Shown: piece after piece, positions 27,001 through 30,000 of the stretch | Layout of the letters: every line of letters begins with the position of its first letter | Numbering within the stretch: the stretch's first letter is position 1 | Assembly: GCF_018977255.1 (NCBI RefSeq) | Contig: NW_024704742.1 | Span: forward strand, 34,660,001 to 34,724,000 | DNA: 64,000 nucleotides | Direction of reading: 5' to 3' | Origin: Callorhinchus milii | Taxonomy: Eukaryota | Program-made: the position numbers and the translations under genes | The notes under the pieces: model-generated | Databases searched by the model: none | Seen by the model: the letters and a program-made list of their open reading frames with translations, nothing else | Told to the model about the DNA's origin: nothing

Positions 27001-30000
27001 AGCCAGTGGAGTCGGGCGAGGATGGGGGTGATAGAGTCTCGGAATCTGGTGCGTGAGAGGACACGAGCTGGATGATCTGCAACCTATGGAGGAAGGAGTT
27101 GGGGAGGCTGACAAGCAGGGAGTTTGCATAGTCAAGCCTCGATGGTATAAATGCGTGTGAGGTTTTCGGCGGCCTGTGGTGTGAGACAGAGGCAGAACTG
27201 AGCGATGTTGCAGAGGTGGGGGAAGTCAGAGTGAGTCATGGCATGGATGTGGGGTAGAAAGAAGTTGAGGGCCAAACAAAATGCCAAGGTTCCGGACTGG
27301 CATAGAAAGGTGGAGTGTGCATCCATGGATGGTGCTGCTGTCAGCATTGGGATTGAAAAATATGCCAGATTGTAATAAACAAGTGGAACAGGTTTAGTGG
27401 TCAGAATTGCCTCCTTCTGATCCTTTTTGCCTGTATGCCTAAAATCATTGTATTATTATTAAAATAAGTAACTCTGGCCTGATATTCCATCCCTCCTAGT
27501 CGTAATTGCAGGAGAATGGTGCATGGTACAGAGGAAAAGGATAGACAAAGGGAATTAAATTTAAATGTAATAAATGTTAATCTTTCAATGACCCAAATTG
27601 TTTTTCTATTAATGATATGATATGTATAGTATGTTTTAATTAACTTAATGGTTCATTATCATACTAATCATAAAAACATGGTGCATTAGTCCTTGTGACC
27701 CATTGTCAAATCCTTTTCAAATGCAAATATCATACACATGTACTTGCTAATTACAGAAAACACTGATGTTTGGGGTCCCAGACAATGTGCTCACGCTGGA
27801 ATGCTATTCTGGCGTTTCCATGACTGGAGAGCATATGGTGGTCAGTCTATTCTGGCACTCCCCACCAGAAGGTAAATGGATTTTCATGCCTTGTTATTTA
27901 CACAGAGCAGATCAATGTTAACATATTCAGAGTACGTAGACTTCATTTACGTAAATGGCATTACAACGTTGACTGGAATGAGCTAGATTTTTCTCAAGAA
28001 TTTAACAGCTGTCATCGATTTTTGCCAGCAGCTTTCTTCAGGCTGAATTTATAAATTCTTTGTCCATTGCAGTGGAATCTGTTCTCACAATGTAAAATCA
28101 ACATTTTTAAAAATCTGATAAGCAGCATACAGCAGATAGCTCTCTCTGTTGGGTTATCTTTAATTTCTACTTTAATCACAATTCATATTCAAGTAAAGGA
28201 TTTTTGCAAACCAATATATCCATTCACTCATGAAAATTTCAAATATATTTAATAATTTCAAATAATTTCTCAATGTTTCCCTGCTATTCTCATGATTTCT
28301 ATTTCAACAGTAGTTATTCCCTGCTAGATGTAGCCTAGAAAGGCTGATCCAGTATACAAAAGTGCTTTAGGGATTGAGAAAACTTTACTCAGAAAAATTG
28401 AGTCTTTTGGTATGTGTCTTATTCCTACGATAGCAATAATAATAATCCTTGCATTTGATCCAGTGCCTTATCGCATAATCAAGACATCTCAAAGCACATC
28501 ACAGGATATACCATAAAGCAGTGGGACTGTGTGTATTTTGTGAGTGAAAATACCATGCCTACCCCCAAAGGCAAGTGTACACCAGCCATGGTTCTGAACA
28601 AACTCTACAAGGTATAATGTCACATTGATGAAATGTTTCTTGTGAAGAGAGTGTTGCCCTCAAACTCAGGCCCACCACAATATCTGGAAATCATGGGGGA
28701 TTTTTCTCCCATTGTTAGAATGGGAGAAAATGTTGGGCCATCCATTTATTTTTAAAGGTATTTTGCAGTTACATCTTTTGCTATTGATAACATCAATTAA
28801 GTAACTCATAGCTTTTTTTTTATCAAGGCAGGGGTTACAAGGAATTCAAAAAACTGAATAGTTCAGAGACTTACAGTCTGCACGACAAGTCCACTTATTG
28901 CCCTCCAACGTGTATCCCGGCAGACAGGAGCAGGTATATGACCCTGGGGTGTTGGTACAGATCTGGCCACAAGTTCCCAGTCCACCTTCAAAGCATTCAT
29001 CAATGTCTGCAAGACAATATTTACAACAACGTGACAAGCCAGCATGCTATTTGCCATGGCTCTTCTCCCCCATCCTCCACACAATGCAGTAATTATTCAT
29101 TTTCAACATGCAAATAGCATAGCAATTCTGGCAGCAGATACACTGAGATTGTTTTGTCTGGGGCAGAGCACAGTTCTGACATAGTTTATGACTGAATCAT
29201 AGTTTACAATGTTATGTAAGTTTTAACAAACTTTACTTGATCATTATTCAGCCGCGAAACTTTTTGCCTTCAGCAACAAAATACAACTGTGGAGTAAGGG
29301 AACTTGCCCAACACTTTGCCTTGCCGGAAATCAAACCCAGGTCTCCCACTTGTGAGGTGAGTGCTCTAAGCACTGAGCTCCAGGACTTTACAAGGATAGG
29401 AAGAGTCAACACTGAAGGATCAAAAAGCCAAGTCACTATGAAAGCTTGGACACAACAAGCCAGTTATCTCTGTGGTAATTTTTCTGGCATCTTTTCAAGT
29501 TGGTGAGACCATAACAAGTCAACATAAATATAAGATAGCCACTAGAAGAATTTAGGAGGAACTTCTTTACACTGAAAGTGTTAAGAATGTCTAACTTATT
29601 GTCAGAAGCTGTGGCTGAAATGGAAAGGAATAATGCATTTAAAAGCAAACTCAATGAGTACCTGAGAGATAAGGGAATAGAGGACTTTGGGAGGAAAAAT
29701 AGGGAGATGGGTGGGAGGATGGCGCTTCATGTGGAATATAAACATTGCATGGACTAGTTGAGCTGAAGGGCCATGTTTCGATGCTGTACAATCTTTTTAA
29801 TGAACCTCATATTGGTTGTGATATGTGTAAAATCCCCTCCTGTATGAACATTTCAATGGAAATGTAATATCATGTAAATTATCTGAACGTAAATGAGCTA
29901 AATGCTACTAATGACTACACAAACACACTCATGTTTCAACAGAAAATGTCTTGATTCTTTAATTGGCAATTGTTAACTCTACTGTGGGCTGATTCCATGC

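Follow-up and report, generated by a model that had tools for sequence, protein, structure and literature searches.

The stretch of DNA analysed here, called the window below, is 64,000 nucleotides from the elephant shark Callorhinchus milii (contig NW_024704742.1, forward-strand positions 34,660,001 to 34,724,000). Its minus strand carries the 5′ half of the EGF gene, and positions 28875-29006 are very probably the coding second exon of that gene. This exon encodes one complete calcium-binding EGF (cbEGF) module, which we read as an ancestral module placed between an EGF remnant in exon 1 and the first YWTD beta-propeller. An earlier note on this DNA, made from the sequence alone, had described it as an extra exon that gives pro-EGF an LDL-receptor-like architecture.

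Exon 2 and its transcripts

The exon is 132 bp long and in phase 1-1. On the minus strand it reads ...ttgcag|ACATTGATGAATGC...GTCGTGCAGACT|gtaagt, with two bases that finish a split codon, then 43 whole codons, then one base of the next codon; the in-frame peptide of 28876-29004 has 43 residues. The coding part of exon 1 (37798-37918, minus strand) begins with the ATG at 37918-37916; it codes for the signal peptide together with an EGF remnant that has two cysteines. It ends at 37798 as ...ACGTGCTTTG|gtaagt (...TGCTTTG|gtaagt), the final G opening the split codon. Exon 3 (25594-25793, minus strand, 200 bp), which starts YWTD propeller 1 and ends ...NGTEKE, begins after ...ttttaag| at 25793. 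Intron 1 (29007-37797, 8791 bp) and intron 2 (25794-28874, 3081 bp), on the same strand, have gt...ag borders that can be read in the sequence. Once spliced, the junction of exons 1 and 2 reads ...FTCF|DIDEC.... The earlier note had seen a clean 132-bp phase 1-1 exon between the signal-peptide exon and the first propeller exon, and this description holds: borders, phase and peptide all agree.

A search with the exon-3 peptide returned a protein 100% identical to it, the pro-epidermal growth factor of Callorhinchus milii (XP_007895185.1, 1177 aa; P0003 below). Aligned to the window by tblastn, P0003 is collinear with the minus strand from aa 1 (37918) to about aa 668 (base 3). The blocks are 84-100% identical, mostly 98-100%, the lower values coming from blocks that overrun exon borders. 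Exon 1 matches aa 1-40 (37918-37799) and exon 2 matches aa 41-84 (29007-28876), both at 100%, and the alignment then resumes at 25794. From this ordered match, with exons 1 and 2 fully identical, the window can be identified as the 5′ half of the EGF gene of the elephant shark; the exon that looked 'extra' is the second exon of that gene as annotated. The RefSeq protein already includes the module.

A look-up of the exon in public sequencing runs found seven holders from three studies, none of them recorded as RNA. We aligned the contigs of four runs (X1-X4) to window positions 25400-38050 and deduced the RNA nature of X1-X3 from their spliced contigs. The first 93 letters of a 226-nt contig of X1 (record 2) are 25701-25793 and the remainder is 28875-29007, which gives the exon 3/exon 2 junction with intron 2 gone. 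A 161-nt contig of X3 (record 19) joins 28943-29006 to 37798-37894, the exon 2/exon 1 junction, with intron 1 gone. Contig pieces of X1 and X3 stop at the exon 3 border, 25793. X2 has a 1568-nt contig (record 15, depth 101.4) that spans exon 1 up to 37798, together with a piece of equal depth that spans exon 2 and ends at 28875. Coverage in X4 is unbroken from 28482 to 29363, over the exon and its intron flanks, as expected of genomic DNA.

Exon 2 is thus included in spliced transcripts in three runs from two studies, beyond anything chance would give. Both junctions named in the earlier note, 37798/29006 and 28875/25793, occur in spliced contigs, and the case it had allowed for, that no transcript includes the exon, is answered by inclusion contigs in three runs. 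Two variants fall within the exon, at 28912 in X2 and at 28918 in X3, and by our reading of the frame both are synonymous third-position changes. No contig joining 37798 to 25793, the skip form, was among the joints listed for Callorhinchus; as contigs lose rare variants, this is uninformative on skipping.

The exon-2 peptide matches the Pfam family EGF_CA (PF07645) at 34.6 bits (cut-off 27, E 2.2e-8) over profile positions 2-43 of 43, and FXa_inhibition at 37.9 bits (cut-off 33.4). The cbEGF consensus has six cysteines, an N-terminal D-x-D/N-E-C and a C-x-D/N-x4-F/Y-x-C site. The exon-2 module has six cysteines and the motif D|IDEC...C...C(T)N(TPGS)Y(T)C.C...C, and by these marks it is a complete module of the calcium-binding type, with Ca2+ binding itself predicted. 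It ends four residues ahead of ...YLIFSHG, the start of propeller 1, and is separated by about 950 residues from the mature EGF module downstream. It is outside the mature EGF ligand.

In an alignment of 15 species, 14 compared with Callorhinchus, identity to the Callorhinchus sequence is 68-91% for the module and 53-75% for the whole protein. The cbEGF motif is unchanged in 15/15 species. We estimate the divergence time across the compared species at about 450 million years. The only comparably conserved parts of pro-EGF are internal EGF2 and propeller 2. The alignment bears the clear mark of strong purifying selection on the N-terminal module. Translated and conserved, the module belongs to the extracellular portion of the pro-EGF precursor.

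It seems likely that the module is a structural element that the ectodomain of membrane-bound pro-EGF had ancestrally. With its D-I-D-E-C...N...Y motif it would bind Ca2+, and it may pack against the G-Y of the exon-1 remnant, like tandem EGF-cbEGF pairs; tandem cbEGF pairs are known to pack together and to form rigid extensions. Remnant and module would then make up a short rigid N-terminal stalk on propeller 1, positioned like the EGF-B-type module of the LDLR family, and propeller 1 would thereby have EGF flanking equal to that of propeller 2. Being symmetric (phase 1-1), exon 2 can be dropped in frame, in keeping with the skip isoforms predicted in Polyodon, Acipenser and Pelusios as well as with repeated evolutionary loss.

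Distribution in vertebrates and a hemichordate

Proteins named pro-EGF among the orthologs come from more than 100 species. The set of models was assembled from word-index searches, an exhaustive search of representatives with the exon-3 peptide, and cluster look-ups for names. The representative search returned mostly multi-propeller proteins, many with bacterial-type domains, and few pro-EGF proteins, which were picked by position. The module was scored as present where an annotated pro-EGF model has a complete D-x-D/N-E-C...six-cysteine module ahead of the first propeller.

Nine of the 12 chondrichthyan models have it (Callorhinchus, Heptranchias, Mustelus, two of Cetorhinus, Stegostoma, Pristis, Hemitrygon and Narcine), those without being single models of Rhinoraja, Chiloscyllium (X2) and Scyliorhinus. 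Both lobe-finned fish models carry it (Latimeria and Protopterus). Among non-teleost ray-fins it is present in 3/7, one model of Acipenser ruthenus and two of Polyodon, and missing from one more model each of Acipenser and Polyodon and from single models of Erpetoichthys (X2) and Lepisosteus. Teleosts have 0/9 (Arapaima, Xenentodon, six Paramormyrops models and one N-truncated, uninformative Neolamprologus model) and amphibians 0/6 (five Pleurodeles models and one N-truncated, uninformative Hymenochirus model). Six of nine models from non-avian reptiles carry the module, namely four turtles, Alligator and Sphenodon; a second Pelusios model, a Chelydra model and a 268-aa Varanus model are without it. 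Birds have it in 63/67 models, chicken included. None of the 25 mammal models has it; two of these are N-truncated, and the other 23 include platypus and three marsupials.

On these models the module would be the rule in jawed vertebrates, conserved across gnathostomes, and its absence a derived state in mammals and, separately, in teleosts and at least one salamander. Because it is found in turtles, alligator, tuatara and nearly all bird models, its loss among amniotes appears to be specific to mammals. Pro-EGF proteins of Gallus gallus (A0A8V0XEN7, P0122), Latimeria chalumnae (isoform X2, P0010), Alligator mississippiensis (X1, P0062) and Acipenser ruthenus (X2, P0015) have the module at the same place and an equal architecture. 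With module identity in the 68-91% range, they show no essential difference from the Callorhinchus protein, whose exon is the chimaera ortholog of theirs.

The mammalian gene (Gorilla P0148, Ornithorhynchus P0155, Phascolarctos P0123) is orthologous and shares the propellers, the internal EGF repeats and the mature EGF module. Its exon 1 still encodes the two-cysteine stretch, but the module is missing and the G-Y of the remnant has decayed. In the gorilla model exon 1 is joined straight to the propeller, and the earlier note was right that mammalian pro-EGF runs directly from one to the other. It had also supposed that an ancestral module was lost on the way to mammals. Ancestry and loss in mammals stand; a gradual loss does not, as sauropsids have kept the module. 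In a predicted human model (P0153, XP_016863334.1, isoform X1) a short extra stretch separates exon 1 from the propeller. This insertion is at the same junction as the module but is unrelated in sequence, and is probably the product of an alternative donor site.

The fate of the exon-1 remnant (W-x-C-x-x-G-Y-x-L...C) follows that of the module. The remnant has two cysteines and matches weakly the last third of EGF profiles (cEGF, E 0.014, 15.7 bits against a cut-off of 26.6). Its G-[YF] (exon 1, 37798-37850, and orthologs) is kept in 82 of the 84 module-bearing models, the other two being N-truncated. G-Y is lost in models from mammals, teleosts, a salamander and a relative of the bichir, all of them without the module. 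The seven module-less models that retain G-Y are from turtles, birds, sturgeon, paddlefish and catshark, clades that have the module, and a gar model (P0145), read by eye, also retains G-Y without the module. Exon skipping in an isoform, or a recent event, would seem to account for the module-less models with G-Y. Such a pattern suggests joint action of remnant and module and may be a signal of coevolution.

A protein of the hemichordate Ptychodera flava (XP_070544757.1, P0248, 1038 aa), labelled 'LRP4-like', was found among the representatives with the exon-3 peptide (window 25597-25791). Pfam finds no LDLa repeats in it. Its order is signal, two-cysteine stretch, cbEGF, propeller, second propeller, EGF modules, juxtamembrane EGF module, transmembrane segment and tail; it differs from vertebrate pro-EGF in being without the four inter-propeller EGF repeats and two distal repeats. 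By BLASTP it is collinear with shark pro-EGF, with 38% identity over aa 11-364 (remnant, module and propeller 1) and 48% over propeller 2 and EGF5. Mature EGF is the best match of its juxtamembrane module in the PDB (E 6e-14 to 1e-13), with TGF-alpha (4e-8), epigen and Spitz scoring lower. Its N-terminal cbEGF scores 57.6 bits against a profile of vertebrate N-terminal modules (N-modules), far above every other non-vertebrate module. P0248 looks like a misnamed invertebrate pro-EGF that carries the module, collinearity being the ground for orthology. Because this hemichordate protein carries the module, the module would predate the vertebrates.

Related modules and alternative readings

The N-module profile was built from 18 vertebrate N-modules, and a tree was made from 37 modules over 42 columns; 15/33 of its inner branches are open and its deep nodes are not resolved. 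The best LDLR-family matches to the profile are cbEGFs that have a propeller within about ten residues after them. These are residues 3095-3136 of donkey (Equus asinus) LRP2 at 40.7 bits, 219-255 of a crinoid LRP2-like protein at 39.9 and 147-185 of carp LRP1 at 35.8. In LRP2, the exon-3 peptide of pro-EGF likewise finds its best match in the blade (3142-3203) that follows the 3095-3136 cbEGF. In solved fragments of LDLR, the alignment of the module falls on the second EGF of the EGF-AB pair (1hz8 residues 42-81, E 1.1e-7). Calling the N-module 'EGF-B-like' seems fair by position and best match.

The likeness to the LDLR family has limits. The EGF-B-type modules of that family (LDLR EGF-AB in 1hz8, LRP2 3095-3136 in P0233 and LRP1 147-185 in P0203) are cbEGFs of equal length with a propeller blade 4-10 residues on, whereas pro-EGF has neither LDLa repeats nor a full EGF-A. 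Similarity between the two is slightly above that to fibrillin-type cbEGFs, and they form no supported clade. Of the LDLR-like architecture described in the earlier note, the cbEGF abutting a YWTD propeller stands, while in place of a full EGF-A in front exon 1 has a two-cysteine remnant. That note had also seen here an intermediate stage in a history that EGF and LDLR share. The position of EGF-B and the best match speak for this, but the 42-column tree gives no supported clade with LDLR-family modules, and the proposal is unproven.

As first put, the idea was that this lineage alone retains a relic EGF-B-like module, a rare EGF/LDL-receptor intermediate and a new observation. The 0/25 count in mammals and the way in which the module abuts its propeller, as LDLR-family modules do, would agree with this. 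However, the module is present in coelacanth and lungfish (2/2 lobe-finned models), in sturgeon and paddlefish (3/7 non-teleost ray-fin models), in turtles, alligator and tuatara (6/9 non-avian reptile models), in 63/67 bird models and in 9/12 chondrichthyan models. The exon is already annotated in the RefSeq protein of this species and across fishes and sauropsids, which removes the novelty. Ahead of the propeller there is one full EGF and a two-cysteine remnant, and the tree offers no supported LDLR-family placement. Specificity to this lineage is refuted, and we regard the relic reading as very unlikely.

The earlier note had also considered a grouping of the module with internal EGF repeat 2, as expected of a recent tandem copy placed before the propeller. 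EGF2 (aa 398-438 of P0003, window 15210-15332) is also a cbEGF with the generic motif and is similarly conserved (78-88% identity). In the tree, nevertheless, the EGF2 modules make up a clade by themselves (97/97, 6 rows), apart from the clade of vertebrate N-modules (96/95, 4 rows; 72/74 with the hemichordate module). The N-module profile gives them 26-28 bits, less than it gives LRP and fibrillin-like modules, and no propeller adjoins them. The N-module is moreover old, occurring from chimaera to birds and in the hemichordate, and a recent copy of EGF2 is hardly credible. An annotation artefact or pseudo-exon, open and EGF-like by chance, might come to mind since EGF-like open reading frames (ORFs) are frequent in the EGF gene. 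The chance of this is negligible given both junctions in spliced contigs of three runs, the 68-91% identity and the synonymous nature of the two exon variants. A more serious alternative is that exon 2 is a regulated cassette, one and the same animal making two functionally distinct forms of pro-EGF, one that includes the module and one that lacks it. The exon is symmetric, and models with and without the module coexist in other species, namely Polyodon (P0021 and P0022 versus P0020), Acipenser ruthenus (P0015 versus P0014) and Pelusios (P0012 versus P0009). Module-less models (P0131, P0136, P0018, P0061 and P0004) are found as well in birds and sharks with module-bearing relatives. Alternative splicing of exon 2, as the earlier note suggested, is plausible on these models. 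However, the coexisting models are predicted or automatically built, only inclusion junctions are among the Callorhinchus contig pieces listed, with contigs dropping rare forms, and the high sequence conservation argues that the included form matters. A regulated cassette with two distinct products is possible, though we lean against it.

The reading we prefer, an ancestral cbEGF exon of EGF with a structural role, has several points against it. 'Absent' in a protein model can equally mean genomic loss, exon skipping or a gap in annotation. The amphibians amount to one informative species, the squamates to one 268-aa model, and the gar and the bichir relative to one model each. The correlation with G-Y rests on about four independent losses. 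Contigs cannot measure inclusion against skipping in Callorhinchus. As for the origin of the module, fibrillin-like and amphioxus cbEGFs reach 34-35 bits against the N-module profile, so that the lead of the LRP pre-propeller modules is just 1-6 bits; the list of PDB matches is headed by ADGRE5, fibrillin-1 and NELL2; and no cbEGF family emerges from the tree, with its open inner branches, as sister to the N-module. The motif, together with what is generally known of cbEGF pairs, is the basis on which Ca2+ binding, packing against the remnant and the 'rigid stalk' are predicted.

Gene context and significance

For further EGF exons, which lie between 3 and 22382 on the minus strand, tblastn gives approximate borders. 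These exons encode the remainder of propeller 1, EGF1-4 and the beginning of propeller 2, as far as about aa 668. The matching blocks are 22382-22197, 20926-20696, 20179-19979, 16528-16406, 15332-15210, 11734-11597, 8819-8688, 6518-6345, 3836-3687, 2140-2036 and 56-3. EGF1 (aa 357-397) comes after propeller 1, the EGF-C position of the LDLR-type EGF-precursor homology domain. The Pfam domains of P0003 are Ldl_recept_b, EGF_CA, FXa_inhibition and EGF, and the window covers the first half of the protein only. The gene extends past the low end of the window, and the ligand module and the transmembrane segment, as read from the protein, fall beyond it.

Several other features lie within or near the gene. 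In all four runs summed contig depth reaches 10^4-10^5 in bins 30042-30463, 32152-32573, 35950-36371 and 36794-37637, all in intron 1, and many contig joints link 30110-30181 with 37168-37226. These extreme depths and joints point to high-copy dispersed repeats in intron 1, with more than one copy inside the intron. An open frame at 8914-9645 on the minus strand, within an EGF intron, has an RVT_1 match and is most likely a LINE fragment. A (GA)n microsatellite occupies 38105-38150 on the minus strand, about 190-230 bp upstream of the ATG, likely in the promoter or 5′ UTR region. Further upstream, on the same strand as EGF, are ORFs with I-set/fn3 (47329-48441) and LRR_8 (56893-57471) matches. 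Human EGF neighbours LRIT3, an LRR-Ig-FN3 gene, and the LRR and Ig/fn3 ORFs probably belong to an LRIT3-like neighbour gene. A sturgeon model (P0016) has LRR/Ig domains fused with EGF domains, presumably a read-through annotation.

A full-text literature search, with subscription journals outside its scope, found no description of the module or of its loss in mammals. Stein and Staros (2006, PMC1618406) confine the analysis to the ligand EGF module, and the text of Barberán et al. (2016, PMC4914847) makes no mention of LDL, pro-EGF, Saccoglossus or deuterostome. A paper on SMOC and pro-EGF (PMC4839742) gives pro-EGF eight further EGF-like domains and eight class B repeats, which is the mammalian count. 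The exon is a real, ancestral and already annotated module that has been lost several times, an ordinary feature of low novelty. The comparative pattern seems to be annotated but undiscussed in the literature searched, and is a small point.

A bolder interpretation can be put together from the same material. Remnant and cbEGF would have been a functional unit since the deuterostome ancestor, as the hemichordate protein hints, behaving as a regulated cassette with skip and inclusion forms and independently discarded in mammals, amphibians and teleosts. Decay of G-Y would have followed each time, marking a repeated change in the role or binding of membrane pro-EGF, and P0248 would, on this view, rank as the first invertebrate pro-EGF with YWTD propellers to be recognised. 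We consider this speculative and, taken as a whole, improbable.

It is the mammalian textbook architecture of pro-EGF that is the derived state. Ancestral pro-EGF had an EGF remnant and a cbEGF before propeller 1, with both propellers flanked by EGF modules as in the 'EGF-precursor homology' units of the LDLR family. The pro-EGF of chick, shark and sturgeon is one module longer than that of mammals, which is relevant wherever pro-EGF function is modelled from non-mammalian systems.

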